Origin: Gnetum montanum
Taxonomy: Eukaryota; Plantae; Gnetophyta
Assembly (NCBI GenBank): GCA_015680685.1
Contig: MNCI01001040.1
Coordinates: 468,279-532,278, forward strand
Length of the DNA stretch: 64,000 nucleotides
Reading direction: 5' to 3'
Position 1 is the first letter of the stretch. Each line of letters opens with the position of its first letter. The notes beneath the pieces are model-generated. The model did no database searches. It had not been told where the DNA came from and saw only the letters and a list, made by a program, of their open reading frames with translations. Below, piece by piece: positions 3,301 to 59,800 of the stretch. The position numbers were made by a program, and so were the translations under genes.

Positions 3301-3467
3301 CCCTAGGTGAATGGCCAAGTGGAGGCTACAAACAAAGTCATCGTCAACCTTCTAAAGAAGATGTTGAGCAATAGCAAATAATGATGGCATAACGAATTAG
3401 TCTACACACTCTGAGCCTACTACACTACATGATGAATAGTAACAAAAAAGACACCTTATATTCTTGT
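400..3467 (+). pseudogene. Degenerate Tat pol (RT, RNase H, additional RNase H, integrase)
   Basis: MPFRLKNTGATYQ and YIDD (1169-1561); integrase HHCC region and WPFQCWGLDIIG (2728-3228); many stops and frameshifts. Confidence 0.9.
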
Positions 3468-13392: not shown

Positions 13393-14439
13393 TGATGAGC
13401 GGTGAGGTACCCCTACACTCAACCATACAAATACAAGCATTCACATGCAATCTAGTCGAACTCCAAGGATTAAGTGCTTATGCGCTTACATAGAACAAGG
13501 ATGGTTTATGCGATTGTTGTCTTCTCAAGCTTACTTGTAAGGCATACTTGTATGGTTAAGTAAACTTGAGGTATATGATTTTTATGCTTTTTATGTTTTG
13601 TGTTCTTGGTGCTTAAAATGGGGAAATGAAATAATTTAGTAACTGATTTGATTTAACTAATCAACTATTCTCTAAGTTGAACACATCCTGAACCAATGTA
13701 ACACTACTGGGATTACTAAACACTAGTCATTACTAGGTTACCTAGTGTTCCACATATGCTCGAAGTGGTCATACAAAGTGTGCTAATTCGTTGATAATTA
13801 ACAATTCAATAGAAATAACATTAAGTAACTAATGAGAGTAGCAAATAATAGTAAATAACATTCAAATGAAATAATTAAGCTATTCTGAATGTTACAAGGT
13901 TTATCACAAAGTTCATCTTTGTTTCTGGACACAAGGTGTGCTCAGGTACACAATGCTTGAATAGAGATCTGTTCACTTTATGACTCCTACTGTGGGCACT
14001 CAGAAATAATTCTAACTTTGGGAGGGAAAAACTACAAGGGTTCGATCAAGAAACTAAAAAACTAATGTGAAACCAAGTGCCCCATGTCTCTTATTTATAG
14101 GCAATGAGACAAGTTCCGACATTGCATGTTCGATATCACTTCGGCATCTCTGATATCATGTATCTGATATCGAGGGTCTGATATTGGGGATCCAATATCG
14201 GGGGTCCGATATTGTGACTCATCATACCCCCACAACTGAATGAAAACTCATCCTTGAGTTCCTTACAAATTATTGGAAAGGCATGGGATTATTGACTGAA
14301 TGATGACTGACGGTGACATGGAATGATAGACTCAAAGTGCCCAGTGAACGGATCAACAAACGTATTACAACATTGGTGTTCATAACCATTGTGGTGAACA
14401 GTTTACATAGATGACATCCAAACCCTCATTTGATAGCTT

Positions 14440-14475
<36 letters not shown>

Positions 14476-17400
14476 TAAGATGAGACACATTGCTATCGAT
14501 GTCAAAATGTGCACACCGTTGTTCATCCATGGCCACATGACCAAGCTTGTTCCTTGTGTAATTGCTCTTGCTCCAGTCCATCCTAAGTGCTCCCTTGTAT
14601 CCCAAGCCATTGTTCATGTGATCACCATTTACACACACAACACAGTCACAAATTAGCAAGGATAGATAAGATATCATATAATTGATACCTTGCCTTGATA
14701 TGAAGCACATTCGCTAGGCTGTGGGTATGGCAGATACTGGGTTAGAGGTTTGCAACTTAACTACCCAAGGTGTAGGGGTGAGATAAGTAATGAAATGGAA
14801 AAATTTGTAATAGGCCCCCACAACTAAGAGTGAACCTTTGGTAGCAATAAGATGGAAAATGAAAGAACAAGGAAGATTAGAGAAATAACAATGGTGAAGC
14901 CAATAAAAAGGCAGAGAAAATGGATGTCATAGATGGGCTAAAACAAGAAATAGTTAAGTGAAAGAAAAGTTTAAGGAAAAGACTTAACAATTGCACCAAA
15001 AAGGAATGCTAGTAGGTCCTCCCTAAAGCAGGCTAATTCCCTTTATGCCCTGACACACCCACAAACCAAAGAGTCTATAGGCTCTAGGTATGACGTATGG
15101 AAGCAATAGTTAAGAATGCACCTAAAAGAATTTACCAAAGAATAACAATGGGTCGACGAAGATATAGACTAATCATAAAATTGAGAATGAGGTGGAATAT
15201 GGAAAGCAATATGGAAAGAGAAGAGAGAATGGAATGGAATCCTAAAATCAAGGTTGTGTAAAGTCCTTTGCATATTATGTGGTTAAGATGACTTAATAAA
15301 ATTTAGCCCAAATCTGGATTAAAACTAACCACATTCAATGACCTCACATCAACACACGTGACCAACCCATCCTCCTGAAGCAACAAGAATGCTTCCATAA
15401 AGCAACCACCATTCCAACAAGAGAAAGATAGGGTAGGAAGTGAGAAAGGGCCTTACTTAGAGGGAACCTTTAGGCATGGATAACATGTCTTTCTAGTGCC
15501 ATAACTAGTTTTTGTAGCCCATGTTCCTTTATTGTGTCTAAGGGGTATGCTTTGAATTCCACTAGTTTGTGTGTTTTTTTGTGTGTTTTTTTGTTAAGTG
15601 GGAACTACACCATGCAAAGACATATTTAATTTATTCAACCTCTTGGTATTAGTTGTCAGTGGAATGGTGGAAAACCTATGAAAAACATCCAAGTACCCAA
15701 GAGAATAGCCAACACTAATGCGTCGAATCCCCTTGAAGTCACACCCTTTTCAATCCATTTAAATCTTTCCTTGGTTTGAAGAGTCCCAACCACAAATTCA
15801 TTAATAGGTTTGATTAGAAAAAGGGACAGTACATTTCCAAAACAAAGGAGACCATGGAGTTGAATGGATGAATGGATAATGTGGACTCATTGCCTATTTT
15901 ATCAAAAGAAACCATATCTTAGCATCAACATGGAAAGTCAAAGGTAAAAACCAAACATTGGAAATCAATCAATATTATAGTACAACCCACCATCATGAGT
16001 ACTTATTATGTGACAAGTGATAATAAATCAAACAAAATGTAACAAAGAAAAAAATAGTAAAAATGCTAACAATGATGCAAAATAAAAAAAAAGTAAAGAT
16101 AAAAAATGTGTTAAAACAAAAAATACAAAAGAAACTGAGGGCTTAGAATAATTAGCATTGATGGCCATCTCCCCCATGACTGAGTTGGAAGGAGAATATT
16201 CGAAATAATGAGCAGGGTTGTCCATCAATAGAGGTAGTGTTGGTATTGGCTGTTTTGGGCTCATGGAAAGGTTTAGTCTACTAGATGTTGACCAATAATT
16301 TATTATCTAGGCTTTCATGGTTATAGATCATCATGGCCCCTGAAGGAAACATTGGCAATGCTCACAAGATTGGACAAAATGATGGGTATCCTAAAATAAT
16401 GTAGGCTAATAATATCCTGCAAGCAAGATTTTAATGGTTGTTCGTCTCCCAGCATGATGAGCCCCACAAGGGCCCTCATGAGTGTCTTGGTGAATTTGCA
16501 ATTGATCTACATCAAGAACACACCATTGGACCAAGTCATCATAACACACCTTGTAAAGGTGTCTATTGATTTCCATGAAATGTTTGACTCGATGGAGAAA
16601 CTATTGTTTCTTTTTAACGTCTAGCCCTTGTGGTGTTTCTTGCATGAGAAGATAAGTAAGAATGTTGTTATACCAATTTGTATCTGTGGGTGATTGATTG
16701 TTTACTACACCTGCAAAGAGGAGTTCATTAGGGAAGTGATCAAAAATTGGATATCTATCCTCTTGTTGTCCCATCGCAACCGAGATAAATGATCGACAAC
16801 AACATTCTCAATGCCCTTACAATCTACTATTGTGATATCAAACTCTTGCAAGATCACTAGCCATTGTATGAAATGAGGGCTCACTGTTGGTTTATTCATA
16901 AGGAACCAGGTCGCACTATGATCTGTGTGTATAAATACCTTATAGCCTAATACATAGTGCCTAAATTTTTCTAGTGCAAATACCACAGCCATTAACTCTT
17001 TTTCTATTGTGGTATAGTTGAGTTGTGCACCAGCAATATTTCGACTTCCATAGTGAATGTAATAGGGATGTCTTTGGTCATCTAACTGTGTAAGTATAGC
17101 TCCTAAAGTAAAATTAGATGCGTCAATCATTATATGGAATAGCCTGGACCAATCAAGAGATTGTAGAATGGGTGTTTCTATGAGCTTTTGCTTCAAGGTT
17201 TGGAAANCTAGAATGGGTGTTTCTATGAGCTTTTGCTTCAAGGTTTGGAAAGCTAGCTCACATTCCTTGGTCTATTCAAAGGGTATGTCCTTCTTTGTTA
17301 ATTCTACCAATGGTTTCGTAATCTTTGAAAAGTTCTTGATGAAGCATCTATAATAGCTAGTATGTCCAAGGAATGATCAGACATCTTTTATAGTTTCAGG

Positions 17401-20400
17401 TTGACAAGTGATTCCTTGGATGACTTTAATCTTTTCAGGATCTACCTCTATCCTTGTTTGTGAAATCTTATGCCCTAATACAATGCCCTCTTGGACCATT
17501 AAGTGGCTTTTCTGCCAATTAAGCCTTAGGTTGGTTTCTACACATCATTTCAATACTTGCTCTAATCAGTCTAATGCTTGTTCAAAGTCTACTCCATAGG
17601 TGGAGAAATCATCCATGAAGACCTCCACACCATTCCCTATTTCCTACTAAAATATGCTTAGAACCAGATGTTGAAATGTTGTTGGGGCATTGCATAAGCC
17701 AAATGGCATCTACCTATATGCAAATGTCCCCCAAGGACTTGTGAATGTAGTATTGGCTTGGTCTTCTGGTGCTATTTGAATTTGATTGTACCCACTGTAA
17801 CCATCCAGAAAACTATAATAGCAATGCCCTACAATGGTATCTAAGACTTGGTCAATGAATGGCAATGGAAAATGGTCTTTAAATGTTGCCATGTTCAGTA
17901 ACATGAAGTCTATACACACCCTCCATTTACCTCCCTTTATAGGCACAATGACTAATAGACTAACCCATTTACTGTTAGCAATGGGATAGATGAACTTGGC
18001 TTTTAGAACCTGTTCAATTTCATCTTTAACCAATTGCTTAAGCTTTGGGTTCAGTCACCTTTGCCATTGTCGTCGAGGCTTCATGGAGGGGTCAGTGTAA
18101 ATTCTATGTTGGCATATCCTAGGATCTATTCCAGTTAATTCAGGATATGACCAAGCAAAGGCTTTGGACCATTTGTTTACCATCTTCAGCAATCTTTCTT
18201 TTTGTTGAGAAGTGAGCTTAGCATTAATGATTACTAGTTTCCCATTCTTGAGAAATGTATACTCCATACTGGTGGGCAACATTTTTAATTCAAGGGGCTC
18301 TTGCTTAAGCTTGTTAGGAATTTTTAACTTCCCCCAGTTGATATTTTCGATGTTAGTACTTGGAAGTTGGTAGTGGACTTGCTCTAATGCATATATGCTA
18401 TCAATATAGACACAAGTTAAGCTCTCAGTTGGTTCCATGCATAAGGTTGAACTGCTTTCTTGGTCAGCTGTCAACCACTGGGTGCCTTCCTATCTTGTGG
18501 CTGCTACATACAAGAATCTTTGTACATTAGTTACTTGTGCACACTGGTTGCATGCAGGTAATGTTAAGCATTGCACAAACCAACACTTCTGCATGTAATT
18601 GCACCCTATGTCACTGTATGCAATGCATGGAACTTTCTTCTTCTCGATCTTCCCAAATGCATTTTCTTTTGATATTTCTAGGGAAAGATCACATATTCCT
18701 AAGCACACATCAATCGTACTTAGCCATGCCCTTCCCATTATGATTGGGAAGTCCCCCTTATAGTTGTTGACTTGGATCACTAGGAAATCAGCTGGATACG
18801 ACCATCCACAAATAGTGATAACAATGTCCTCCACTAGTCCTGATGGGACAGTGATGGAATGGTCGACCAACTTTAAATGAATGTTACTCTTTTTTAGTGG
18901 AGGCAAGTTCTAGGCTCTGTACATTTCTTGAGAGATTATGTTAACACTAGAACCTAAATCCAAAAGAGCTTTGCAAGGTTCATTCCCAGTGATTTGCAAA
19001 TATATAAAAGGATAGTTCAGGATCAGAGAATTTCCTAGGAAGATGGCCAACTTTGATCTAATCGGGAATGGCATGAGTCAACATGACCATGTGCATTAGG
19101 TGTGATTTTTTATTCGAAGGAAGCTTCAAAGATTCAAATGATGATGAGGTGTTTGAATAACTAACCGCTTGTGATTGTAAGGGCCTAGTTGGATTGTTGG
19201 TTCTAAAGAAAGATCTCCTCTTTGATCAGTTATTCAAACCAATAGTAGGTTGAGAGTTGATAGCCCTTGTAGTGTTATGTTGCTACGGCTAGGTAGGAAG
19301 CTCACCCTACATAGTTGGAGTAGGTGGTAATGGAGCTAAGGGTGGAATAGGTGTAGTCGGATGAGAAGGATAGTACATATTTGGAACATCACTCCTAGGA
19401 GAAGGAGTTCTATAGTACTCATGGATCTGGTAGTGAGGCTAAGGAGCAACGTGACTAATGGAGTCAGGTGGAGAGATCGACTGCTGAACATAGTACCCGT
19501 ATGGGTCAAGTTAACGGTAAGGGTTTTGTTGACATGGTAGTGGAATTCCCCATGCTTGTGGCTATTGCCATTGTTGATACTATTCATTCAGTTGTGGTGG
19601 AGCTCCACTCAAATAATATGTCAAGGGTTGGAGGAACTGCTTTGGGTTACCTTGGGAATAAGGTAACCTTCTGGGTGTTTGTCATCTATTTAATCATGGG
19701 TTTAGTGCATACACCTCAGACTCTTGTAGATGTGACACTACTGGACAACATCCTTTAGATGGTCATATTGGCAAATTCCACATCCACCATCATTATTTGT
19801 GTCCAAATCCACAACCTCTTCAATGACGGCAACTTTGCCTTTACCCTTGTTACATGCATACTCAGCTTCTTTCTTTTTCTTGCTCTCTCGATCACTACTT
19901 TGTTCTCTAGACTCCTCTACTATTTTTAGAACGGTTTGAAATTTATCATCTAGGGAGTTCCACATTTGATCTACCTCTACCGATACTTATGATGCCAATT
20001 TTTGAATAGGAAAATTCTTTTTATTCACCATCTCTTTGAGTGATGATTCTTCTTCATCTTTGCAAAATCTAACTTCCTTCTTTCAGAGGAAAGGATCTCT
20101 ATTATATTTCTCCGCACTTTCTCTTTTCCTTAACTCACCTTCCTCCTTGGCAACTTGCTCCAACAATCTTTGTATTTGATGGGCTCTGAGCTCAAATAGC
20201 TTTCCTTAGGCATAAGTCCTAAGGGCTCTTCACATTTCATACCTAAGCCCATCTACAAGATGGCGTAGTTGTTCCCTTTGCAAGTAACCATGGCCAAGGC
20301 AATGATGTAATAATGCATAATATCAGCCCAGGGCAACATCCAAGGGTTCGTGTCCTCCTTGTTTCCATCCTTGGATTTTCTTACGCAAGTTGGACACTTG

Positions 20401-23041
20401 GGAGCACGTTTGATACTTATCATTGAATAGCTCTAACATGGTACTCCATTGATGAATGGACTCCGATTCTAAGGATCAGTACCAGCTTTCTACTTCCTTG
20501 ATCAATGTCTGTGGAAACAACTTTAGTTTTTTCCACTCATTTTTTATATTTTTCAAGGCACATGCATCATGAAATGTTTGTAGATGGTTTTGAGAATTAG
20601 CATTGTATCCCCCTTCAAATCATAGGATGTTTTTCATGTCTAGTCTTTTGATCCTACTATCCTTCTGGTGCCTTGTTGAAATCCTAACAACCTCTATTAT
20701 ATCTAACATGCTCTGGGTGGCAAGTAGGGGTTCATCGTGATCGTATTGTCTATGGTGTCTATGAGGCCTATGTTGTTCCCTACTCTCTCTTCTTTCATGG
20801 TGTGTTTCTCTGGAATGCCCTCATCCCCTTTCTTGATTATTTTGTTTATGATCTCTATTTTGCCTACGATTGTCCTCATGGTCTTTCCCTTTGCAACTAC
20901 GTTTAGATCCTGAAGAAGAGGGGGAAGGAGATGATGAAGGTCAAAAGGAAGAAGGACTGGAACCGTGATAGTACCTGTCACTTTCTCTTTGGTGGTCGCA
21001 GCCTCAATTGCGATTACGATTGGAATGCCCATCATTGTCACATGTTCGTGTTCCTTTTTTGGATCCTTTGTGTCTGTTGGTATCAGAACTTGGGTTATGA
21101 ATAGTTGAGTGAATATTCTGATACACAACTCCTTGACCGAATTCAATGAGAGGAACATCATTTTGTGGAAAACCTATCGAGGCAAGTTCACCACCCTTAT
21201 TTTCACTTAGGACATACAGGACATCCTGAGATCATTTTCCCTTCATAGATTTGTAATGTCTCTCCTATTGTAGGTCCCTTTGATGTTGTGCCTCTGTGGG
21301 TCGATACTCTCTCAAGTCGTGTTCATGCCCAACGTACTCTGCATGTAAGTGATGCATACCAATTCATGTGAAAGCACGAAGAAGCAGGCTTTGGATTGAG
21401 CAATCAGGAAGTAACACTATGTTACCTTCTAAATCATGCCAACGCAGTTGTTCATCCTAGTGGAGGATAAAGGTAAAGTCTGGTACATACTCATCAGGAT
21501 GAGCGTATACCATGCAAAACTATTGGGGCACTAGCAAATCATCATGTGGTCTCTGCCTTTGATTGTTCATTGTGTTGAACCTAGTCAGTGAAGCACTTTC
21601 ATAAGAAGAATGAGACGTGATTAATTATTTAGTGTGCAATACCCTTTTTGGTGATTGTAGGATAGTTATTTCTAAGGGTTCGTTCCAATGATGGAAAGGA
21701 TTGCCTACGTTCTAATGAGCGCACAAACAACAAAATCCCCAGCAGCGGTGCCAATGATGAGCACTGAGATACCCCTACACTCAACCATATGAATACGAGC
21801 GTTCATGCGCAATCTGATCGAACTCCAAGGATTAAGTGCTTATGTGCTTACACAGAACAACGATGGTTTATGCGATCGTTGTCTTCCCAAGTTTAGTTGT
21901 AAGGCATAATTGTATGGTTAAGTAAACTTCAGGTATATGATTTTTATGCTTTTTATGTTTTATGATCTTGNTGCTAGGTTACTCATCTCCATGGGCTTCC
22001 CCCTCCTTAGCTTAGGGAGGTACTTCTTTTGTNAAACCTAGTCAGTGAAGCACTTTCATAAGAAGAATGAGACGTGATTAATTATTTAGTGTGCAATACC
22101 CTTTTTGGTGATTGTAGGATAGTTATTTCTAAGGGTTCGTTCCAATGATGGAAAGGATTGCCTATGTTCTAATGAGCGCACAAACAACAAAATCCCCAGC
22201 AGCGGTGCCAATGATGAGCACTGAGATACCCCTACACTCAACCATATGAATACGAGCGTTCATGCGCAATCTGATCGAACTCCAAGGATTAAGTGCTTAT
22301 GTGCTTACACAGAACAACGATGGTTTATGCGATCGTTGTCTTCCCAAGTTTAGTTGTAAGGCATAATTGTATGGTTAAGTAAACTTCAGGTATATGATTT
22401 TTATGCTTTTTATGTTTTATGATCTTGGTGCTTAAAATGGGAAAATGAAATAATTTAGTAACTAATTTGATTTAACTAATCAACTATTCTCTAACTAGTC
22501 CTATCACCAGCATCCATTCCCACTTGCCAAACACATCCTAAACTAGTGTAACACTATTAGAATTACCAAATGCTAGTTGTTACTGGGTTACCAAGTGTTC
22601 CACGTATGCTAGAAGCGGTCGTACTGAGTGTGCTAATTCATTGATAATTAACAATTCAATAGAAATAACATTAACTAATGAGAGTACAAATAACAGTAAA
22701 TAACATTTAAATAAAATAATTAAGCTATTCTGAATGTTGCAAGGTTTATCACAAAGTTCATCTTTATTTCCAGACACAAGGTGTGCTCAAGTACACAATG
22801 CTCGAATAGAGATCCATTCACTTTATGACTCCTATTGTGGGTACTCAAAAATAATTCTAACTCTGAAAGGGAAAAACTACAAGGGTTCGGCCAAGGGACT
22901 AAAAAACTAATGCGAAACCAAGTGCCCCTTGTCTCTTATTTATAGGCAACGAGACAGGTTCTGACATCACATGTCCGATATTGCTTCGACATCTTCAATA
23001 TGGCATATCCGATATCAGGGGTCCGATATTATGACTCATCA
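13393..23041 (-). mobile_element. Athila-like Ty3/gypsy element (Ath-A), full-length but decayed; integrase core appears deleted
   Basis: LTRs 13393-14224 and 22212-23041 with TGATGAG...CTCATCA termini; perfect TSD ATATG (13388-13392 / 23042-23046); tRNA-Asp-type PBS TGGCACCGCTGCTGGGGA at ~22193-22210 (-); PPT complement next to 14224. Protease 18490-18960, RT 17710-18033, RNase H 16705-17241. Confidence 0.95.
14442..14471. repeat. (AG)15 microsatellite
   Basis: Read directly from the sequence. Confidence 0.95.
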
Positions 23042-47224: not shown

Positions 47225-50200
47225 TCATGGGGTGTCTCTGTTTGCATCGCCTTCGCCACTTGCCTCTGCTTCATCTGCTGGTGCATCATCTGCCCCTGCA
47301 TTGCCTTCTGCCGGTTCTTCATTCCCTCCCTCCACAGGTCTCACACCCTCATCTAGAGCCTACATCGCAAGAATTAAGTAGTTAGCTAGGGCAACAACTG
47401 CAACAAATGCAAGCTATAACATAGCATGAGCATCTACTCATTAAAGTGACTAACCTGAGAGGGGCCCACGTCGGTCTCAAAGGGTATCCAGTCTAGACCA
47501 AACCTGAGGTGATGCCAAATCTCTTTTTTCATAATGTCCATCCAATGCCTGTCGCTAGGTTCAGCATTCACAACAGCAGCTTTCTCCCTTTCCACAGTCA
47601 TCTATCTTAGAGGTTCCATGGAAAGGGAGGTGGTTGCGGTCTCTCCTATAGGAAGGTCCACCTTCAAGTCAGGAGATTCCGTAACCTTCACCCACTCTTT
47701 AAACTTAGCATAGGCCTTAGAAGCGCCAATGGCATTCATGAATGCTTTATAAAAGAATGGCTTCATAGCAGCGTCTTTGTACAGTCTCCGATGGGTGTCG
47801 TTCTCCAGCTTGTATGCATGTTTGTGGTTTCTCTGGGTTCGCCCCCATTCAAAGACTTTAGCACTAATATCTTTCATATCCTGACACTTCTAGGCTAGCA
47901 AGTCCATCTGCATTTATTGTTCGACTATCTCGCAGGTGGATTCAACATTCTGGTGAACGACAGTCCAAAACCTGGCGTAGTCATCTACATCCCTCTTACA
48001 ATCGACAACGTTAGGGTTATGGTTTATGAGGAAGTCGACCCTCGACCTAAGGATCGCCACCTCAGTGACCAGCTCAGCCTCTCTCTTCTTAGCCCTATGG
48101 GCCCGTTTCCACAGATCCTCATTAGTGCACTTACACTTCCACAGAGAGCGTGCTGAGTGCAAGACGCACTTGTGAGCCTCATCGAACACACGATGAGGTA
48201 CATGGGTCATGTCAAGTGAGAGTGTAGGCACGGCATCAATTCTCATGGGTTGAGCTGGGTCCCATTTGAGCCGAGAGCCTGCGTCAACCTAAGGAACAAA
48301 GCAATCGCATTAGCATAGCAAAATCAACAAACTCAAAAGTTTTTAACAAAACAACATAGGATCATTTAATACTGCCACTTACCTGCACGAGGGTCCACCT
48401 ACTGAAGGCGTCTGATCATGTCGTCAACAAGCCCCTGCACGAACGTAAACTTGTCAGGGATCTCAGCCCACAACTCCGCACAAATCAGAGGAGGTCTCAT
48501 GACATTAGCAGTAACACCTGTTACACGATTAACCATGTCAGCAATGGCCAAAATGGACTATGATAAGGTAGACATCCCACCAACTCACCAGTGCCTGACT
48601 ATGGTCTTTCTTCTTGCTGATGCAAGATTATTGTAGTAGCCTCAGTGGAGGACCCTGCCAAATCCATACAAGCCCCTTCCTCATGCGCTGGTGCCTTTCT
48701 TTTTAGGAGACCAACATCTTTTTTATTCAAGGGAGACACCTCTTCGTCAATAGGAGGAGGCTCCCTAATGACAAGCATCCCTGCCCTAGAGACAGGAGCT
48801 CCCTTATTCCTGACCAGGGCCCTTTCCTCCGAGACTAGGGCCTCCACATCTTTATTCATCGCCCTCGTCCTAAGCATCGACACTTCCTCATCGCCTTCTT
48901 CTTCATCTTCTTCTTTCTCTGCTAAGCAAAAAAGGCATGTTTCGGTCGATTCAAAACAAGCTAGTTCAAAACAAATGCTACGCTACGCCGCACTGCCTAG
49001 CGTAGCAAACTATAATAAAGTAAGCATTACACAAAAATTCTTACCAATGGGGGGTTGCGTCCTCTGTAGCTTGAGCCACAATCTTTGTCCCTACTCTTCG
49101 TGAAGGGTTTCCTTGGCTCAGGGAGGTCTCTTCCTTCGCAACTCCTTGGGCACAGTCTCAACTATGAGACGTTCACCTCATGTCACGCTACTAGTTATGA
49201 TAGGGGACATCTCTCCTACGCTATCCTAGCCACGAATGCTACGAGCTGCCAAATTTTTAGTCATTATAGACAACGACTCCCCAACCATTTCCAAGGGATC
49301 CTAGGCTTACATAGTCTAGAGAACCTATCGAATTCATGGCTTGGGAATCTGATCACGATCTCGCACGAACCAGACTCCATCCTCCTAGACCACTAGGAAC
49401 TCCGCGAAGTGCTTCAAACAGCCTATGTAGAAGGCATAGTGTATGTTAGAGCGACACTTCGTTTGCTCATGGAGCCCAAAAATCTCAACCTGCAAGCCAC
49501 TACATAGGAAACTAGCCCAGTTGTAACGGGCCCCTTCTTCCATAACCTCTTGCATTACCCAGGCCTACTCAAGCCCCAGGACCTTCTCTTAGGTGAGCAG
49601 TTGAGGGAATGCATGAGCACAAAAGATCGAGTAAATCTCCATGGCAAGGCCATCCTTAAGCTTTTCCAAAGGGAATTCTTTTCGCTCCTTGGTGAGCCTC
49701 AACCACTCCTTGATATGCTGCTTCTGAAGGGTCAACTCCTGTTTTCCCTTCAACACTACGGAGGCACCATTGTCAAGAACATCAAAAAGATTTGCAAACA
49801 GCTGGTCATTGATTTCAATGATCACCTGCACACCCCGTACGTACGTGCAAAAATGAATTGTCCTCCTAGAGAAGGAGTTGACTAAGGAAAGCATCTCGGC
49901 AGTAGAGATGCTCGAATTCGAAGCCAAGAATAGATCCATAAGCCTCTCGAGCAAGGAGTCCAAGGCCCCTCATTCTAACCAGCTTTGGCTCGCTGCTACT
50001 TCGCCATATTTGAAGTAGATGTTTGCCCCCTGCCTCTTGGTGGTTACCACCATCACCTCACGAGGCTTCTTTGCCCTTGCAACAATTTTCACAAAATGCA
50101 CGTAGCATAACACTGCAGAGAATTCAAAGATTACGAAAACACTTGAGCACACAGTGCCTACCTTTTAACCCACCAGGTCTATATGGAACGGGAACAGCGG

Positions 50201-51714
50201 GAGTTTAATCAAAGCCTCTTTAACCGTGACCTGCTTGAAGGGTTCTTTCCAATCCTTATCCAGCCAACCCTTCTCCCTACACTGATTATAGAGAGTGTCG
50301 AGCATGTGTAGATAGGTACGGTATTCTCCCCCACATTGACCAATCACACCCATCCACAGGTTCTTGGCAGAAGCAAACTCCCGTAAGGCTAGCTGCACTA
50401 TAGCCAGTAGACCCGGTTGGTTGTGAACCCCGTCATCATCAATGTAAAACCTAGTGACAAACATACACCGTTAAGCCTTTGGTTGGTATGGTCAGCGTTG
50501 CACAACAAAGCAAAGAAAAGATGCAAAACTCACGTGCCAGCACAATAGACAGTCCCCTGTGGGTTCTGAAAGTATATCGCCATGTGATGTGTGAGAAACA
50601 ATGTGTTGTATTGGTGATAGTAGTTGAATTCCGGCATGTCCCAAATCGAGGCTAAATGCCTCAACCCTGTTGAGTGTTGGCTAGATCCTCCTCCCTACTT
50701 GCTCATGATTGCCTCATCGGTAAAATATCTCAGGATGCCCCGATTTGTCCCTGGCAACATGGCTTCTATTATGCTGGATGCCTCCTTCTCCTCTAAGGAA
50801 GACCAAACAATCACACTACAGTGGTTGAGAAGGAATTGCAAGAAGTCTTGTGCCTCTTCCTTGAACCAAACTGCTTGATCTCCCAAACGTATTTGGGGAG
50901 GAGGAGCATTGGCCACAAGTCTGCTCACATGGCACAAGACCCCTCCAATGTCCAAAACAATCAGCTGGGACCTTGGTCCTGCCCTGCACAATGTAGTCAG
51001 CAAATATTAGTATCACACTTGAACGTAATACATGCGCAACATAGCAACTTCTAGTAGCCCATACATATAGTATAGCATGACCCTTTTCCCATACATATAG
51101 TATAGCATGACCCTCTGCCTGTACATAGCGTAGCAAGGGTGTGGAAGCCTAACGTAGCAGGAGCATGCGAATAGCCTAGCATAGCAGGAGCATGCGAATA
51201 GCCTAGCATAGCAGGAGCATGCGAATAGCCTAGCGTAGTAGCAAAACAATTGATGACATGCCCTAACAAAACATGTGTCACATTACCACATCACACCATG
51301 GCCTAGCCCCCTCAAGGGTTCACGTTGCAACATGCTAAGGTCAAGCGACTTAAACTACCTTAGCCCCCGTGGTTGTAACAACCACAGCTGTGGTGGTTTT
51401 AACGGCCTTGCATGCAATCACGATGCAATGTTTATGCATCTTCCATGGCCGAAACGATGACTACGGTGGTGCAAAGGCCAAAATGATGCAACCACAGAAA
51501 ACGTGGAGAACCAAGAATGGACGCAAACAAATAGGATGCAAAACTAGAGCAGAAAATAGCAAAAAGTGCAACACAAAAAAGGCAAAGAGGACAGAGTAAC
51601 TTACTGGGTCAACAGTGTGCTCTTTCACGCCAGAACGCGCACTTGTGGCGCATGCCTCAGGGTCTTTTTCACCTCCTCAACCTTCACAAGTTCCAAATGA
51701 GTCTTAGGAGCCAT
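47225..51714 (-). pseudogene. Spliced antisense accessory gene of Tat-2: FCP1/NIF-like HAD domain, transposon-associated central domain, coiled coil and acidic tail (~1,150 codons, several in-frame stops)
   Basis: Exons 51714-51605, 50983-50534, 50450-49045, 48921-48383, 48288-47455, 47359-47225. All five introns are GT-AG with compatible phases (2,2,1,0,0). Starts MAPKTHLE, ends TGA TAG; ATAAATA at 51872-51866. The TAA at 50167-50165 may be a decayed CAA, an intronic base triplet, or a true boundary between two genes. Confidence 0.8.
51057..51240. repeat. Tandem repeats (30-bp x2 and 27-bp x~3.5) in intron 1 of the antisense gene
   Basis: CCCATACATATAGTATAGCATGACCCT twice; GCAGGAGCATGCGAATAGCCTAGCATA repeated. 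Confidence 0.9.
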
Positions 51715-52196
51715 GGTCCTGCTTGCAGATTTACGCCCTTCACTATAGAAATTCACCTTGCTAATCGATCAACACAATTGCTTCGCGTTCCAAAATCGCC
51801 TTGTGCTCTGATGAGGGTTCTGCGCTCTTACGATAAAAATGGTGAAATTACCAAGGTCTAACCCCTATTTATGGCCATAAGAGGAGGGAAAACTTGTTGC
51901 CCTCTCTCTCTCCGATTAATGTGGAGTGCGCCGTATAGCGTAGCATGCTCGCCATGACATCATAACACGATTAGCATTAAAGCCTTGACACACTTCAAGC
52001 CAGCTACTTACCTTCCCAAAAACAAAAAATAATATTTGTTTTTGATTAAGGGTCTGAAAAGATCTTAAACTAGCAATCCTAGCATAGTTGCACCCCTCAG
52101 GGTCCAAAAAGACCCTAAATTAGTAGTTTCAACCTATTACGATCGCAATCCACAAATAACGTTAAACTAACAACACCACATGCTTACATCAGTGGT

Positions 52197-52241
52197 TATC
52201 TCATCTTCTTTCACATAGGTAGTATCACATTTCTTAGTGGT
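52197..52241 (+). repeat. Left 45-bp direct repeat (identical to 56449-56493)
   Basis: TATCTCATCTTCTTTCACATAGGTAGTATCACATTTCTTAGTGGT at both ends of the PLE. Confidence 0.97.
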
Positions 52242-52641
52242 AGTTAAAGTTATCAATCTACGATTGGTAGTTCACCTCTCGACCAAAGAAAAGCATTTCA
52301 TGTGTGGCTCTACCATCCAACATCAAAATATCTTTTTTTTCTTAAAGCCCACTGAATATTTTTTTTTGGGACTCTATCTTAAGCATTATCTAACTCGATG
52401 AAAATCATATTCACATTATTCTTTTTATATTAAAATTTTTGCATAAGTTTTCTTAGTAAGAAAACGACTTCTATAATTAAACTCCCTAGCATAAAACCAA
52501 ACCGATTCATTAAAATGATAAGAATAGCTTACCATAAATATATAAAATTTCATAAGCATAAATTTATTCTTCTAAATTTTTGTAAATCTTCCAACCACTT
52601 GTGGAGTCGTCCCTAAGAACTTCTCCTTTCGGCCGAACCAG

Positions 52642-53805
52642 ATGGCCAAGCCCCATCCTGGCCCTGCCAGACAGCCTGCTAAAAATCAGCAGAAAAAACA
52701 GCCGCAACAGAAACAACAACAGCAGCAAAAATCCAAAAATTCCAAGCAACAGCAACAACATCTACAGCAAAAACAACAAAATCAACATCTTCAACAGCAA
52801 CAACAATTTCACACACAGCCAAATCGCAGACAGCAAAATCAGCAAAACATGCAAGGGAATCAACAAACTAAACAAAAACAACAGTTTTTCACTGCTTCTA
52901 GATCTAACCAAAATAATTTTGCTTCAGGTTCTAACTCAGATCCTGGCATTAATTCGATTAATTTTGGTTCTGGTTTTCGTTCGGGTTCTAGTTTTCGTTT
53001 GGGTTCTGTTTTCTTGCAAGACGTAGGTTCTGGTTTTGGTCATGGTGCTCCTGCAGGCCCTAACCTCAGACCCGGCCGTGGCCGCGGTCGCGGCCGCATT
53101 TTTGAGCACGGTGCAGACAGATCTGTTTTTGGTTCAGTTTGACGCGGTAGAAATTTCAGTTGTTTTGAGGGTCGCACGGGGGGCAGATCTGGCGGCAGAG
53201 GTCGCACAACCTTCAGATCTGATAGATCTGAGGATTTCATTCCCGGTTCTACTCCTTGATCAGAGTCTTTTGGTTCAGGGCCTCCTCGACCTCGTTGTTT
53301 CAACCGTCGCCCTCACCCTTCTTTCGCGCCTCGACCGCCCGCACGATCCGATCTCCCTCTAGCTTCGCGCTCTAATCCACGCTCTTTTGTCTTTGGATCT
53401 GGTTTCACTGCAGGTTCCAACTCTGCTTAGCCGCAGCCGCCGCCCTCCCGATCTGCTCAGCCACTGCATTTCGATTCTGTTTCAGGATTAAACCCTAATC
53501 CCGTTTGGCGTGCTGCGTCCGCCGCTAATGGTGCTTCTGTTTCTACGTCTCTTTTCTGTTTTCCCGCCGCTGCTGATGCTGCTTCCGCCGCCGCCGCTAC
53601 TTCCGCCGCCACCGCCGCCGCCGTCACCTTTAGTAGCGGATCTTCCTCCCTTGGTGTGGCTGTTGTCACCTTTAGCAGCAGATCTTCCTCCCTTGGTGTG
53701 GGCTTCAATGGAATGAATGTTTGTAATTTGAATTCTGAGGCTATTTGTCTTGAGGATAGTAATTCTTCTGGGTCTTTAAACCCAGACGGCCCAGCCCTGA
53801 ATTAA
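52642..53805 (+). pseudogene. PLE ORF1, 387 codons, low complexity (Q/N-rich, then RG/FG/S-rich, then poly-Ala)
   Basis: One frame from ATG 52642 to TAA 53803-53805, broken only by TGA 53140, TGA 53257 and TAG 53428, each one C-to-T change from CGA/CAG. TATAAA at 52541. Confidence 0.8.
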
Positions 53806-53816
53806 GGGGCTAGGCC
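53775..53816 (+). promoter_or_regulatory. Putative -1 programmed ribosomal frameshift signal (T TTA AAC, 6-nt spacer, hairpin)
   Basis: Slippery heptamer 53775-53781 is correctly phased in ORF1, and its -1 frame is the RT frame. Stem 53788-53798 / 53806-53816. Confidence 0.8.
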
Positions 53817-55994
53817 CCACATGACCCCCTGTCCCCGCCTTTCAAACACCCTCCCTTCTCTTCTTTGTCCCATTCAAACCTCCATTCCCGTTGTCTTTGG
53901 GTAATCTACTTCAATGTGTGCCCTAAACAACCCCCCGCAAATTCCCCCCTTTGCTCCATTTATGCCACTGCCCGAACCCTCCTCCCTTCAAATTTTTCAC
54001 CTCGTGCCCAGAAACCCTCTCTTCATTCCCGTTTGAATTTTTGGTTACCAGCGCTTGACCAAAAAGCCTACGCTCATTTGCTCTTCGCCAGAAAAACCGT
54101 CCGAGAAGTCGAAAACCGTCTTTCCAACTTCGCGGTACATAATTTTTCTTCTCGCGTTCTTTCAGCAAACGAAACGAAGCTCCTGGGTCATGGTTTAAAA
54201 TTTATCCCCCGCCCCCCTCCCATGGATAAAATAGCTATCCTTAATGAATATACCGCGTTTTCCCACCTTCTGCGTTTGCGTAACTTCTTTAAGGATAATC
54301 CTGATGTTGATTTGCCATCTTCTAAATTTCTTTGTGCTATTCAGATGGCTAAAATTAAAATTCGCCGTTCTAATTGGGATCCCCCTCCCGGCAGCTAGAA
54401 TGGGGAACTTGAACATAGCATTCGCTATGGTCTTAAGTCCCTTCACTCTGCCCTCACCTCCCTCGATGTCCGCCAAAGACCCATGCTTCCAAGATGTCTT
54501 CTTGGAGCCCTTCGTGGACTCCGAAAAGATAACAGCATCGTCATTCGTCCTACTGACAAGAATTTGGGGGTGTGTGTTTTAGACTCCAGTTGGTATCTAA
54601 TGGAAGCCAACGGTCAGCTTGCTGATTCAGAAGTTTGCCTTCAAGTGGATGCCGTCCCATGGGATCCTGTTCGTCTCAGACTGCTTGCCATCATCGACCG
54701 CTTTCCGAAGAAATTGTCTGTTTTTAAGGATGTTTTGTTACAAAACAAGGTTCGCAAACCTTGTAATTTCTACATCCCTAAAATTCATAAACCGGTCATG
54801 GTTGGTCGGCCTATTTGTTCTTATAAAGGCTACATCCTTGAACTTGCTTCTCGCCTGCTCCATTTCTTGCTGTTACCAATCCTTTGCCATCAACCCAATC
54901 ACCTTTTGGATTCCTCTACCTTGATCCGTGACCTCCATGCTAGACCTCTACCTCTTAATGTAATTATTTTTACATTTGATGTAGAATCTCTATATCCTAG
55001 CATTCCCACGGATCAAGGGCTTCAGGTTCTTCAGGACATGGTTGATAAATATTTTGCTGCAAATCCCATCCCTTTGCAGTCGATGTACAGCAATGCCATC
55101 ATGCAACTCTCTGCTTTGGTGCTTCAAGAACACTACCTTGAATTTAACGGGGTAGTGTACAAGCAAACCAGGGGCACTGCCATGGGTAGCAACTTTGCAG
55201 TTGTTTACGCATGTCTTTTTCTGTGTCATTTGGAAAAGCATGTCTTCGTTGCTCCCTGGTCCGATAACCTTTTATATTTTAAAAGGTTTATCAATGATGC
55301 TTTTGGCATTTGGAACGGCTCCGAGGATTCCCTTCGTACCTTGCTTGAAAGGTATAGTAATGTTTATCCTTCCATAAACATTACTCCCACCCTCTCTAAC
55401 TCCACGGTTAATATTTTGGATGTTACTTTTTTCAAAGGTCCTCATTTTGCTGACACTGGTATCTTGTCTACCAAGTGTTATCAAAAACCTTTGAATACTT
55501 ATCAGTACATCCCCTTCTCCTCTTGGAATCCATTCCATCAGAAGAAGGCTTTTATTATTGCGAAGTTGAAACTGTACCTGATTAGGGAATCCTGCCTCGG
55601 CGATCTTCAGCAGATTCGGCAACAACTGTTCTACAGACTTCGGGCTTGTGGCTATCCTTCTCGGCTGTTGTTCAAATGTTTTGGCTTAGTTCCTGCTGCT
55701 TCCTGAGGTTCACTTCTGGAACGACTTCAGCAAAGTCATAGCTTCCATAAGGTTCAGGCCCCTCTCATCTTCAAATTGGATTTTAGTCCATCCACTAAAT
55801 CCTTGAACGTGAGGGCACTCCTAAACCCTTTTCTGAGTCAGCTTCGGCAAAAAGATCCGAAACTCAAGGACGTCATTCCAGACATGATCTCTTGCTGGCG
55901 TAATCCAAAAAAGCTGCATTCTTTTCTTGTTTAGAACAAGTTCAGTGCTCAACCCCCACCCCCACTTCGACCTGAACGAGTGGGGCCGGTTTAA
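53775..55994 (+). pseudogene. PLE reverse transcriptase ORF2 (740 codons, 4 in-frame stops), no GIY-YIG after the thumb/linker
   Basis: Motifs VHNFSSRVLSANETKLLGHGLKFIP, IRPTDKNLGVCVLD, IPKIHKP..GRPI, FTFDVESLYPSIP, YKQTRGTAMGS, RFIND (FIDD with a CpG transition, 55287-55298), YQKPLNTYQYIPFSS and WRNPKKLHSFLV. Stops at 53811, 54396, 55704, 55932; terminal TAA 55992-55994. Confidence 0.92.
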
Positions 55995-56099
55995 TTTTTC
56001 GAAGCTGGAATGTTTCCAAATTTTAAATTCAACTGGTCAAGTTGGGGATCTATAAATTGAGCACTTTGGCTCTTGTGACATTGTACATCTCATCGCAGA

Positions 56100-56145
56100 A
56101 AACATACTGAAGAGGGGTGAGACTCCCCGAAAACGTTTTATGTTT
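56100..56145 (+). ncRNA. Minimal type I hammerhead ribozyme
   Basis: Stem I AAACATA/TATGTTT (56100-56106 / 56139-56145), core CTGAAGA (56107-56113), stem II GGGG/CCCC (56114-56117 / 56125-56128), GAAA (56129-56132), palindromic ACGT, then U-H (56137-56138). Confidence 0.9.
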
Positions 56146-56272
56146 GAAACGTTGATTTGTTCATGTCATCTTAGAGCCTCTTTTCCTTTTTTGTTCCATT
56201 TTGTTTAGCTTTCTATTTCTACTCTCTTTGCTTTCCTCCACCATACTTCCACCTGCCGCACAAGACCACAGC

Positions 56273-56450
56273 AAATTTTTTCAGCTACAACCTTAAAATT
56301 TTTTTAGCTACAACCTTAAAAATTTTTTCAACTACAACCTTAAAATTTTTTTAGCTACAACCTTAAAATTTTTTCAGCTACAACCTTAAAATTTTTTCAG
56401 CTACAACCTTAAAAATTTTTTCAGCTACAACCTAAAAATTTTTTCAGCTA
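56273..56450 (+). repeat. 3'-terminal tandem array, ~7.6 x 23 bp (AAAATTTTTTCAGCTACAACCTT)
   Basis: Seven full units plus one partial unit running into the right 45-bp repeat with a 2-nt TA overlap. Confidence 0.97.
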
Positions 56451-56493
56451 TCTCATCTTCTTTCACATAGGTAGTATCACATTTCTTAGTGGT
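56449..56493 (+). repeat. Right 45-bp direct repeat
   Basis: Identical to 52197-52241. Confidence 0.97.
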
Positions 56494-56871
56494 TGCATGT
56501 TTCCATTTTTGCATCAACAATCCAATACTTCTCATGCTCGCAATTTCCTGTTTTGCTTACTATTATCTTACCTATTAAGATTTTGCATGTTGCGACCTGG
56601 CAGTCCGAAATGACATTAAACTAGCAGTTTGGCATTTTGGAAGCAACAGTTACACAGCTTCGCACTTTACATCAGCAATTTTATACCTTTATCAATTCTA
56701 CATTCTTGTGCCTTGGCAGTTCGCCACGACCTCAAACTAGCAAACTTTCAATCTTTACATTGCCACACTTAGCAAGTTGCATCTCGGCATTGCTTTGTAG
56801 ATTTTCGTTTTACACAATCTCTGACACCCCTTAACCAAAATTTCATCTTATGATGATAGGTCAAGCGAGAG

Positions 56872-59800
56872 ATGGAAATCCATCATGACCTTTCCACGCC
56901 TTTAACATTAGCAGGGCCACAAGGCGAGCTCGTGAGACAGTTGAACCCCGACATGATCGACTGGGAGTCAACTACGACTAGCACTATAGCAACCTTAGAA
57001 ACATCCCTGAATTGGCCCAGGCACCTAGTCCAAGCCCTAGACTTAGAGGCCAGGGATGTAACTGAGAACCCTCTTGTTAAGACACCTGTGACCACGTCAA
57101 AGGGGAAGATGAAAACTTTAAGACTCAACTCCCTCCTAGACACACAAACATATAAAAGCGTAGCTAAAATTCTACAAGACAACATCGATGTCTTCGCATG
57201 GTTATACTACGACATGCCGAGTCTGGATCCATGGCTAATTTAGCACAACATCGTCCTAGACCCACACGTGAAGGCAGTCAAGCAAAAAGCTCACAAAGTT
57301 AAGCCAGAAATTGCACTCGCTGTGAGGGATGAAATCAATAAGCTATACCAAGCAGGTTTTATCCACGTAATTGACTATTCAGAGTGGGTATCCAACACCG
57401 TTGTGGTTTCGAAGAAAATAGGAGGGATACGGATCTACATAGACTTTCAAGACTTGAACAAGGCAACGATCAAAGACAACTTCCCACTCCTGAGCATTGA
57501 TTAGCTCATCGACACCACGGCTGGTCATGCTCTACTATCCTTCATGAATGGTTTCTCCGGATACAACCAAATCCGCATTAACCCAGAGCACCAGCTATCA
57601 ACAACCTTCATGACCCCATGGACGACCTTCTACTATACCATGATGTCGTTTGGGCTCAAGAATGCTAGAGCAACCTACCAGCGAGCCATGACTTAGATTT
57701 TCAGTGACTACATCCTAGAAACATTAAATGACTACATAGATGATATAGCGGTCAAAGCCAAAGAGGCCACTGATCACCCGCACGACCTAGGGGTAGCCCT
57801 CAAATGCTGCCAAGTGCACGATTTACACCTCAATCCTAAGAAGTGCGTCTTCGGGGTAAAAATTGGATGCATGTTAGGATTCGTAGTATCGGCGGCTCAA
57901 CAAAGTCAAGGCCAGCGTCAACCTAGCACCTCCAACAAACCTTAAAGAGTTACATGGTTTACAAGGCAGGGTGCAATTCATTCGAAGGTTTATAGCAAGG
58001 TTGACCGACAAGTTACACCCCATGCAACATCTACTAAAGAAGGGGGTTGACTTCAAATGGACAACCCAATGTCAACAAGCCTTCAATGATTTGAAGAAAG
58101 GACTCGCGCATCTCCCGATAGTGCACCCGCCACAAAGGGACAAACCTTTTTTCATATACCTTGCCACCTTCGACACATCCATAGTGGCACTGTTATGTCA
58201 GAAGCGAGATGATAGTTCTGAGATACCAGTGTACTACCTGAGCCATGCACTAGTAGCATATGAGGAAAAATACAATGAAGTGGAGAGGAATTGCATAGCC
58301 TTAGTGTTCGCACTAAAAAAGTGAGGACATTACCTGTTCCGCAGCATAACCAATATCATTTGCAAAATCAATATACTCCGGGCTATCACCAACAACCCAT
58401 ATGAAAATAGCAAGATAGCCTGATGGAAGGCAATAACTGCAGAATTCAACGTATGCTATGTAAGTCAATTGTCGACAAAGGGTCAAGCCATAGCGACCCA
58501 ACTCACAACCTCGCCAGTCGATGACCAGGCAACCATAGACCCCAAGTTTCCGGATGAATATGTTAGCAATGTCAACATTGTCCTATCGCATCTCGAAGCC
58601 ACTTTACACTTCAACGATGATTCAACCGTGCAAGGAGGTAGCGCCGTGACTATCATCACGTTCCCCTCTGGGGAAATGCACCCATCCACTTATTAATTTA
58701 TGTTCCCTTGTACCAACAACGTGGCCGAGTACGAGGGGCTACTTAGAGGCCTCTTAACTGCCCGAGCATTATGCATACAACACCTGACAATCTGAGGAGA
58801 TTCACAACTAGTCGTGAATCAAATCACCGAGATCTACGCCTGCAAGGCTACACACTTGCAACCCTATTGCGACCTAGTAAAAGTCCTACTTAAGCAATTT
58901 GCGACCACTAATGTGCAACATGTGCCACGCAACGAAAACATCATGGCAGACACCTTGGCTACCCTAGCGTTAAACATTTCATCACATTCCCTGGCAAACC
59001 TGCCAACCTCGATCATAGAATGCGCAGAGCCTATCACTCAGGTGGAACACATGGCATCTGTCAATGCTGCGGATACCTAAGAGTGGTATGCCAACATTAA
59101 AGATTATCTACATCACAGTGAACCCCCAGGTGGATTAACATCGGCCCAGAGAGATGCAATCCGTAAACGTGCTCGGCAATACATGCTCATGGGAAACAAC
59201 ACCCTATGCTGACGATCCTACAATGAGATATTGCTAGCATGCGTGGGTGATGAGCAGGCACAAAAGGTAGTTAATGAGGTTCATGAAAGATTATGCAGTG
59301 GACACATAGCACCTAGGGCCATGGTTGCCAAAATCAGATGTCTAGGATACTATTGGACTTACATGGAGCGTGACTTCCTGTCGAAAGTCAAGACGTGCGA
59401 CACGTGCCAAAGATATGCAAATCTCATACACATAGCACCTACAGACCTACACCCAACGCAAATCACGTGGCCCTTCCAACGATGGGGATTAGACTTCATA
59501 GGGCCCATCATGCCTAAGTCCTCCATAGGGCATAGCTTCATTATCACTGCCACAAAGTATTTTACCAAGTGGGTGGAAGCTATTCCCCTAAGGAAGATGA
59601 CATCTCAGCAAATCTACCACTTCATCCTCGACCACATTGTAATAAGGTTTGGGCTTCCAATGACTATTTTGATCAACAATGGGCCACAGTTCAGTAGTAT
59701 GGAAACTCAAACCTTCTATAGCAATCTAGGCATTAAACAATCATTTTCTTCCCCTTATTATCCACAGGCAAATGGGTAGGCGGAGGCTACAAATAAGTCC

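Follow-up and report, generated by a model that had tools for sequence, protein, structure and literature searches.

The 64-kb window analysed here, from contig MNCI01001040.1 of Gnetum montanum (all coordinates are window positions), contains a real unit of 4.3 kb at 52197-56493 that we interpret, with good confidence, as a dead and 5'-shortened copy of an endonuclease-less (EN-minus) Penelope-like element (PLE) with two open reading frames (ORFs). In this interpretation the element belongs to a plant lineage of the Coprina type, represented in Selaginella and the gymnosperms, and lies inside a gypsy retrotransposon, where it was likely inserted by priming on a staggered break made by the host. 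Hallmarks of PLEs are present, namely a hammerhead and a TATA box in the window, tandem copies in relatives and a 3'-biased read depth; the window copy has no 5' pseudo-long terminal repeat (pseudo-LTR). The lineage itself is known, and what appears to be new from the sequences is the anatomy of its plant members: a conserved slippery site with a hairpin, the spacing of TATA box and hammerhead, and an ORF1 domain. No description of these three features in plant members was found in the literature surveyed, which excludes the primary accounts of 2007 and 2016 that may already describe them.

Evidence for this placement comes from ORF2, which encodes a reverse transcriptase (RT) in the -1 frame relative to ORF1. 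Its PLE motifs, including a DKN motif that is invariant in the RT alignment, and a structural model (pLDDT 85) whose top ten Foldseek matches are all TERTs bear out the PLE RT proposed in the initial annotation. The window RT was undetected by Pfam, had no sequence match in the PDB and lacks an IFD; the RT3-RT4 spacing is short, about six residues above that of plant relatives. A search with ORF2, its stops read as X, returned 395 matches, and the best named proteins among the 120 listed were from Cryptomeria japonica (52% identity), Ginkgo, Selaginella moellendorffii (41%), Closterium and Microbotryum, with Ginkgo and Cryptomeria the nearest named kin among them. No relatives were found in viral contigs. 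Trees were built from rows chosen among the 274 of 322 proteins that cover the RT core, after removal of near-copies. With 199 rows (FastTree), the window falls in a 21-row clade (support 100) together with Selaginella, Ginkgo, Picea and Cryptomeria, to which Closterium is sister; with 60 rows (IQ-TREE), the same clade comprises 28 rows (support 99) and places the window in a subgroup with Ginkgo and Cryptomeria (support 98). The Picea member is a Picea glauca protein contained in one of the protein clusters, and the Microbotryum protein, called Coprina in PMC8557442, lies on the EN-minus side of the 60-row tree.

The printed record agrees with this placement. The window RT shares FTFDVESLYPSIPT and RGTAMGSNFAVVYAC with 'Selagine1', a row that stands next to 'CoprinaP1' in Fig. 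S1 of PMC8557442, and agrees fully with that row in motifs RT3 and RT4. Sm1 and Sm2 of Selaginella are named as Coprina in PMC13159263, where a two-ORF Coprina is also described, and EN(-) PLEs are reported from Selaginella, Pinus taeda and Picea abies (PMC9033089). An EN-minus plant PLE of a different clade, PLE-X, is apparently genome-wide in Chara (PMC8557442). The suggestion that the unit matches no described plant PLE and represents an undescribed lineage is therefore withdrawn, as the RT matches a described family, an outcome that the initial annotation had itself named as incompatible with novelty. The presence of Ginkgo proteins in this clade shows that Ginkgo has PLEs, contrary to the statement in the available text of PMC10473749 that Penelope is absent from gymnosperms outside the conifers. 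Nothing on this lineage beyond background was found in the available parts of PMC4700185, PMC9370799, PMC11539532, PMC12477314 and bioRxiv 10.64898/2026.07.22.740005.

Some of the matching proteins display peculiarities of their own. The Picea glauca RT of this PLE family (P0264) is labelled as a mitochondrial gene, ABT39_MTgene4059, and is either nuclear DNA within an organelle assembly or an insertion into the mitochondrial genome. The Ginkgo gene model Gb_40217 (P0121) joins an RNase H-like piece (E 0.002) to an ORF1 tail and RT, which suggests another PLE copy nested in a different retroelement. Eight near-identical, intact ORF2s of Cryptomeria (cluster P0001) are annotated as uncharacterized host genes; seven of the eight named members are located on scaffolds of 15-52 kb, several with neighbouring locus numbers, which suggests recent tandem arrays.

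A nuclease is missing from the window copy and, as far as the sequences reveal, from its entire clade. The six frames of 50000-59000 contain no GIY-YIG domain (best E 7.9), and a profile built from four GIY-YIG-bearing matches identified 13 EN-bearing proteins among the 322, all 13 outside the window's clade. With the same profile, no match in the 402 reading frames from the window and 66 related metagenome loci surpassed E 1.1; these loci form 11-22 groups by RT identity, and counts over them are thus not all independent. None of the 95 motif-bearing proteins of the lineage is EN-bearing, and 76 of the 80 with a recognisable linker end no more than 24 residues beyond it. A search for longer forms of the RT gave eight matches, the sole close one being a Ginkgo gene model, and is weak as a negative. 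Together with the TERT-like predicted fold, these sequence comparisons uphold the earlier view that nuclease loss is a trait of the family and not a deletion in one copy. The window RT does stop at the linker, where EN-bearing elements go on, as it would if a Dryad- or Neptune-like element had lost its nuclease in this copy alone. Such a copy-specific deletion is rejected by the count of zero in 95 and by the profile results and is hardly conceivable: the EN-bearing proteins are only about 28-32% identical to the window RT and belong to a different clade, and just 112 nt separate the last ORF2 stop from the hammerhead core. The C-terminal GIY-YIG in a single ORF that typifies Dryad, Penelope/Poseidon and Neptune is absent, and of the features of Naiad/Chlamys, an N-terminal GIY-YIG has no EN match upstream and the IFD is absent, while the CxC motif was not searched for separately.

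The window copy is dead, judged by its internal stops and a lost catalytic residue. The RT frame is interrupted or ended at 53811, 54396, 55704, 55932 and 55992, whereas other copies read sense at 54396 and 55704; Asn replaces the first catalytic Asp at 55293-55295, and three bases fewer are present at 54772 than in other copies. Although all seven internal stops are single transitions away from sense codons, as was pointed out in support of a reconstructable ancestor, this is uninformative because any stop codon is one transition from some sense codon. The stop at 55932 is either a defect or the natural end of the protein: ending there leaves 11 residues past the linker Trp and reading through leaves 31, against 14-24 in 75 of 80 relatives.

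The relation between the two ORFs is conserved well beyond the window. In the related loci, ORF1 overlaps ORF2 in a -1 relation, and an in-frame slippery heptamer is found at 41 of 42 intact ORF2 starts (a count that omits the 24-plus of the 66 loci in which this start is not intact), in most cases followed within a few bases by a strong hairpin. By comparison, 41 heptamers occur by chance in 7903 ORF1 codons from 11 loci, none of which is followed by a comparable hairpin. The window retains a site of the same class and a hairpin (z -1.67 for the hairpin by itself), so that the joining of its two ORFs by a -1 frameshift, as originally proposed, finds support in a signal common among relatives.

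The 5' part of the element is less complete than was supposed. The frame of ORF1, which opens at 52642 and terminates at a stop at 53803, does encode the low-complexity protein that was first noted, and is rich in Gln, Arg-Gly and Ala, but begins within the part that follows a conserved domain of about 210 residues in relatives. This domain was recognised in 40 of the 66 related loci and in Ginkgo (E 6e-10), with a weak match in Closterium, but none of the six reading frames across the full 64 kb contains it, indicating that the window copy is 5'-truncated. In the related locus L001 (417-1085), the domain is modelled as all-helical with long helices (pLDDT 86); it has no match in the PDB at E<=0.001, in the Atlas above 0.80 or in Pfam, shows nothing nuclease-like and has just four database matches. 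The domain, which carries a PxSL..PP motif, also occurs in the Ginkgo and Closterium gene models. Many ORF1s among loci L011-L038 contain CCCTAA-type runs encoding Pro-Asn repeats, and these telomere-like runs within coding sequence could possibly serve as internal priming or capping sites.

Upstream of ORF1, the AT-rich segment has a read depth of only 18-56 over 52232-52535 and no match to the element's own 3' end; it may represent an intron, a leader peculiar to a subfamily, or filler DNA taken up where the 5' end was joined. An imperfect palindrome occupies 52434-52478. A variant at 52450 is common to contigs of all four DNA runs examined and three RNA reads exit the segment at 52508, both of which point to part of it being a small separate repeat. 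A TATAAA near 52540 had been taken as the promoter of this leader, but the TATA box conserved in the family is found at the other end of the element.

At that 3' end, 43 of 46 hammerheads, or 24 of 27 distinct contexts, have a TATA box in the interval 30-70 nt upstream, compared with a background of 5.4%. The distance from box to core is 35-56 nt in these cases, and the window copy, with a spacing of 56 nt, conforms. The putative hammerhead is minimal, with a stem I of 56100-56106 and 56139-56145, the core CTGAAGA at 56107-56113, a stem II of 4 bp, GAAA at 56129-56132 and a palindromic stem III. The ribozyme claimed initially is hence present as a motif with its stems, but is not recognised by Rfam, either at the gathering threshold or at E<=5, and plain folding of 56085-56165 yields a different and unremarkable structure (z -0.72). 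In several related loci with head-to-tail tandems (found in L015, L020 and L037, for instance), the hammerhead lies upstream of the next ORF1, and the 3' TATA-hammerhead is for this reason most likely the start module of the following unit. Its TATA box is likely the pseudo-LTR promoter of that unit, with an activity that would follow from its conserved position. Beyond the hammerhead, six loci (L002, L005, L015, L030, L032 and L036) continue through similar pyrimidine-rich DNA into a further ORF, and by analogy the window's spacer may be the start of the next unit's 5' untranslated region (UTR), to which all sequence beyond the hammerhead, including the array, most likely belongs. The array itself is as described at the outset, with 7.7 copies of 23 bp; a 9-mer in it matches the C-strand of the plant telomere at eight of nine positions, a weak and post hoc likeness reached by 147 of 5000 shuffles.

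The identical 45-bp sequences that flank the unit, 4252 bp apart, are genuine, but behave like host DNA and not like terminal repeats of the element. Both flanks have read depths from the thousands into the tens of thousands, and the host depth, 5100-7300 up to 52231, falls to 37-56 in the following bin. One contig of run X6 follows the left flank as far as 52237 and picks up again at 56558, while a second, 88% identical, spans 56449-56620 from the 45-mer onwards without the array. Both fit an empty site with a single 45-mer, and the repeat is accordingly most likely a target-site duplication of host gypsy DNA. At 56449, 8-10 contigs from run X6 part from the window copy and continue into one other sequence common to them, and since other copies diverge there, the window copy ends within its own UTR. 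It is very improbable that the unit is instead a complete member of an undescribed PLE lineage, bounded by terminal repeats of its own and driven by the TATA of its 5' leader. The perfect identity of the 45-bp repeats, the TATAAA near 52540 and the modest 52% identity of the nearest named protein among the matches listed would suit such an element, whereas the 45-mer occurs in host-type contigs, the RT nests with EN-minus RTs of Selaginella and conifers, the conserved TATA is located at the 3' end and the ORF1 domain is missing.

Contigs covering the element were obtained from four DNA runs representing three organisms. Their summed depth is 0-85 over ORF1 and about 600-3800 over the 3' part of the RT, values that are not a copy number; in each of two runs, a variant at one site is common to 87 contigs, and assembled contigs are mostly 85-95% alike. 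The family is read as consisting of many diverged and mostly 5'-truncated copies. Two RNA runs contributed 68 and 32 reads over the element, one in each at >=95% identity, which are too few for a conclusion on expression.

The window holds no tandem TTTAGGG or CCCTAAA in its 64 kb, which confirms that this copy is outside telomeric repeats. Published telomeric EN-minus PLEs bear reverse telomeric repeats directly after the hammerhead, and the telomeric placement of Coprina, not matched by the window copy, is matched by three of the 66 related loci (L029, L031 and L060), where a perfect (CCCTAAA)n abuts the element. As the literature describes these elements as 'generally' telomeric, the mismatch makes the window copy less typical and leaves its membership of the RT clade intact. 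It is also conceivable, if somewhat unlikely, that the family is restricted to telomeres, the window copy being a rare stray or one moved by recombination or within a subtelomeric block, with most of the read depth contributed by subtelomeric arrays. The three telomere-abutting loci, the formation of tandems, and the short scaffolds and adjacent locus numbers of the Cryptomeria cluster P0001 are all compatible with this. Conversely, direct insertion agrees with the exact duplication that bounds the unit on both sides within a gypsy element, the similarity of most contigs is that of old, diverged copies, and at least ten related loci are flanked on both sides by unique, non-telomeric DNA. A telomere-restricted family and the explanation preferred here differ just in the frequency of internal insertion.

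The preferred explanation, insertion at a staggered internal break, can be set out as a series of steps in which we infer promoter activity, ribozyme cleavage, priming and frameshifting from sequence. The TATA box before the hammerhead would drive transcription of the next head-to-tail unit, from which ORF1, a helical or coiled-coil protein with a disordered tail, would be translated, along with a rarer ORF1-RT fusion produced by the -1 frameshift. An RT with a predicted telomerase-like fold and, by its sequence, no nuclease needs a free 3'-OH at a chromosome end or an internal break, and the fusion would extend any exposed 3' end, usually at a telomere and here probably at a staggered internal break. 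Reverse transcription appears to have started within the array, some 310 nt downstream of the hammerhead, presumably primed through a two-base microhomology. An end this far beyond the hammerhead suggests a template left uncut at that ribozyme, which fits the behaviour of an EN-bearing PLE in vitro, where initiation occurs internally on uncleaved RNA and hammerhead cutting is dispensable for insertion (PMC11167929). Within ORF1, synthesis would have come to a halt; 400 nt of DNA from elsewhere would have been attached at the 5' end, and the staggered ends, once filled in, would have left 45 bp of the target duplicated. The copy then decayed. Breaks with 3' overhangs are known to give rise to tandem duplications in mammalian cells (PMC8355091).

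Several observations weigh against this explanation. The 400 nt at the 5' end (52242-52641) are unexplained, and the empty site is deduced from two diverged contigs of a single run, with no contig among those listed spanning it base by base. The window hairpin is modest by itself, as 11 of 200 shuffles are equally stable, and the copy has just the weak telomere-like 9-mer and no reverse telomeric repeats by its hammerhead. The trees hold no labelled sequence of Coprina Sm1/Sm2, Cc1 or Pc1, of Dryad, of Athena or of TERT, and the name Coprina consequently rests on the printed motifs and the Microbotryum protein. Finally, ten related loci with unique flanks have no long duplication at their ends, the longest shared word being 6-11 nt, although these ends were set by cross-matching and are possibly blurred; a long target-site duplication is thus not supported as a family trait. 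The same absence of duplications from the ten loci argues against a nuclease borrowed in trans, whether from EN-bearing Dryads of conifers, from the ORF2 of a LINE or from a similar source, which would make paired nicks and so generate the staggered cut and the 45-bp duplication for a partly parasitic family. A clean and exact duplication does resemble the variable-length duplications of target-primed reverse transcription described for EN-bearing PLEs, the family is multi-copy and EN-bearing Dryads exist in conifers. No helper has been identified, however, no EN-bearing plant relative is included among the matches listed (120 of 395, 8 and the top 150 in the respective searches), and we regard such borrowing as improbable.

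Among known systems, Coprina Sm1/Sm2 of Selaginella moellendorffii (PMC8557442, PMC4209133, PMC13159263) is closest to the window copy, with identical RT3 and RT4 motifs, a 3' type I hammerhead and neither IFD nor endonuclease, and a protein of this species shares the window's RT clade. The window copy differs in its location in a gypsy element, its 45-bp duplication, its tail of 23-bp repeats in place of a telomeric array, and the minimal, palindromic stem III of its hammerhead, the hammerheads of Selaginella being described as canonical. The EN(-) PLEs of Pinus taeda and Picea abies are likewise gymnosperm elements without endonuclease (PMC9033089), and a protein from their relative Picea glauca belongs to the window's clade. 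Coprina-1_Alen of Ascochyta lentis (PMC13159263) likewise has two ORFs, a coiled-coil, disordered ORF1 and an ORF2 of RT and thumb, and no EN, but is fungal, and in one isolate each of its 13 copies occupies a chromosome end, with telomeric repeats on either side; the available text makes no mention of a frameshift signal. Athena and the Terminons of bdelloid rotifers (PMC8557442, PMC6431247) resemble the window's family in their EN-minus RT, a coiled-coil ORF1 separable by a frameshift, a 3' hammerhead, head-to-tail arrays and 5' truncation; Athena differs in its printed RT3 and RT4 motifs, which suggest a different clade, in the reverse telomeric repeats directly after its hammerhead and in a pseudoknot where the window has a simple predicted hairpin. 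PLE-X (PMC8557442) is another EN-minus plant PLE with hammerheads and non-telomeric locations, genome-wide in Chara and in 28S rDNA in Selaginella, but is a Chlamys member with a CxC motif and an IFD, the latter lacking from the window RT. Dryad, an EN-bearing member of Penelope/Poseidon in conifers, shares with the window a gymnosperm PLE RT and an interstitial location, and differs from the window's clade in its single ORF with a C-terminal GIY-YIG.

The coordinates of the element and its host are collected in Table 1. Two other features of the window lie outside the PLE. At 50165-51006 on the minus strand, upstream of the gypsy pol, in antisense orientation to it and at a depth in the thousands, is a decayed ORF for a NIF/FCP1-like HAD phosphatase (PF03031, E 5.8e-5), possibly an extra ORF of host origin carried by the LTR element. 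Farther upstream, 13569-22035 and 21578-22428 contain an exact repeat of 393 bp, 457 bp apart, and pieces matching 13569-13825, which reflect either a recent duplication or an assembly artefact.

Table 1. Features of the Penelope-like element and its host in the 64-kb window of G. montanum
Feature	Position	Strand	Basis or remark
Left 45-bp copy	52197..52241	+	100% identical to 56449-56493
AT-rich segment, 70% AT	52242..52641	+	Composition, low read depth, no ORF1 domain on either strand
ORF1, low-complexity C-terminal half (Q/K-rich, RG-rich, A-rich)	52642..53805	+	Reading frame; stops at 53140, 53257, 53428
-1 slippery heptamer T TTA AAC, ORF1 frame	53775..53781	+	Same site class in related ORF2s
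Hairpin 6 nt 3' of slippery site	53788..53816	+	ORF1 stop in loop; ORF2-frame stop 53811 at sole mismatch
ORF2, telomerase-like PLE RT, thumb and linker, no endonuclease	53814..55994	+	Alignment, model, Foldseek
TATA box	56051..56056	+	56 nt upstream of hammerhead core; position conserved in relatives
Minimal type I hammerhead, putative	56100..56145	+	Motif and stems
Pyrimidine-rich spacer	56146..56272	+	Analogy with tandem relatives
23-bp array, 7.7 copies	56273..56450	+	3' end of insertion inside array, 2 bases common with target
Right 45-bp copy	56449..56493	+	Exact direct repeat
Host gypsy-type pol, decayed; RT, RNase H, second RNase H; outside PLE	56860..59080	+	Pfam RVT_1, RT_RNaseH_2, RVT_3

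Among mobile elements, EN-minus PLEs are most closely related to telomerase. Although the dead copy in the window has little value by itself, interest remains in a multi-copy, 3'-biased family with at least one copy, that of the window, outside telomeric repeats. In this family an internal insertion has clean junctions and can be dated, relatives are numerous, and intact ORFs exist in a conifer that has been sequenced. The source of primers for EN-minus PLEs away from telomeres is stated to be an open question in PMC8557442, and the intact natural copies of Cryptomeria make nuclease-free priming testable. We suggest only tentatively, and at rather less than even chances, that a plant branch of these 'telomeric' elements has left the chromosome ends and become genome-wide and break-seeking in giant plant genomes, where it would heal internal staggered breaks with its own cDNA, leaving long target duplications, and be equipped with a conserved TATA-hammerhead module, with -1 frameshifting and with an ORF1 domain that matches no recognised family. 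If this break-seeking habit is real, the intact Cryptomeria proteins, of 626-639 amino acids, would provide a biochemical handle on a proposed ancestor-like state of telomerase.

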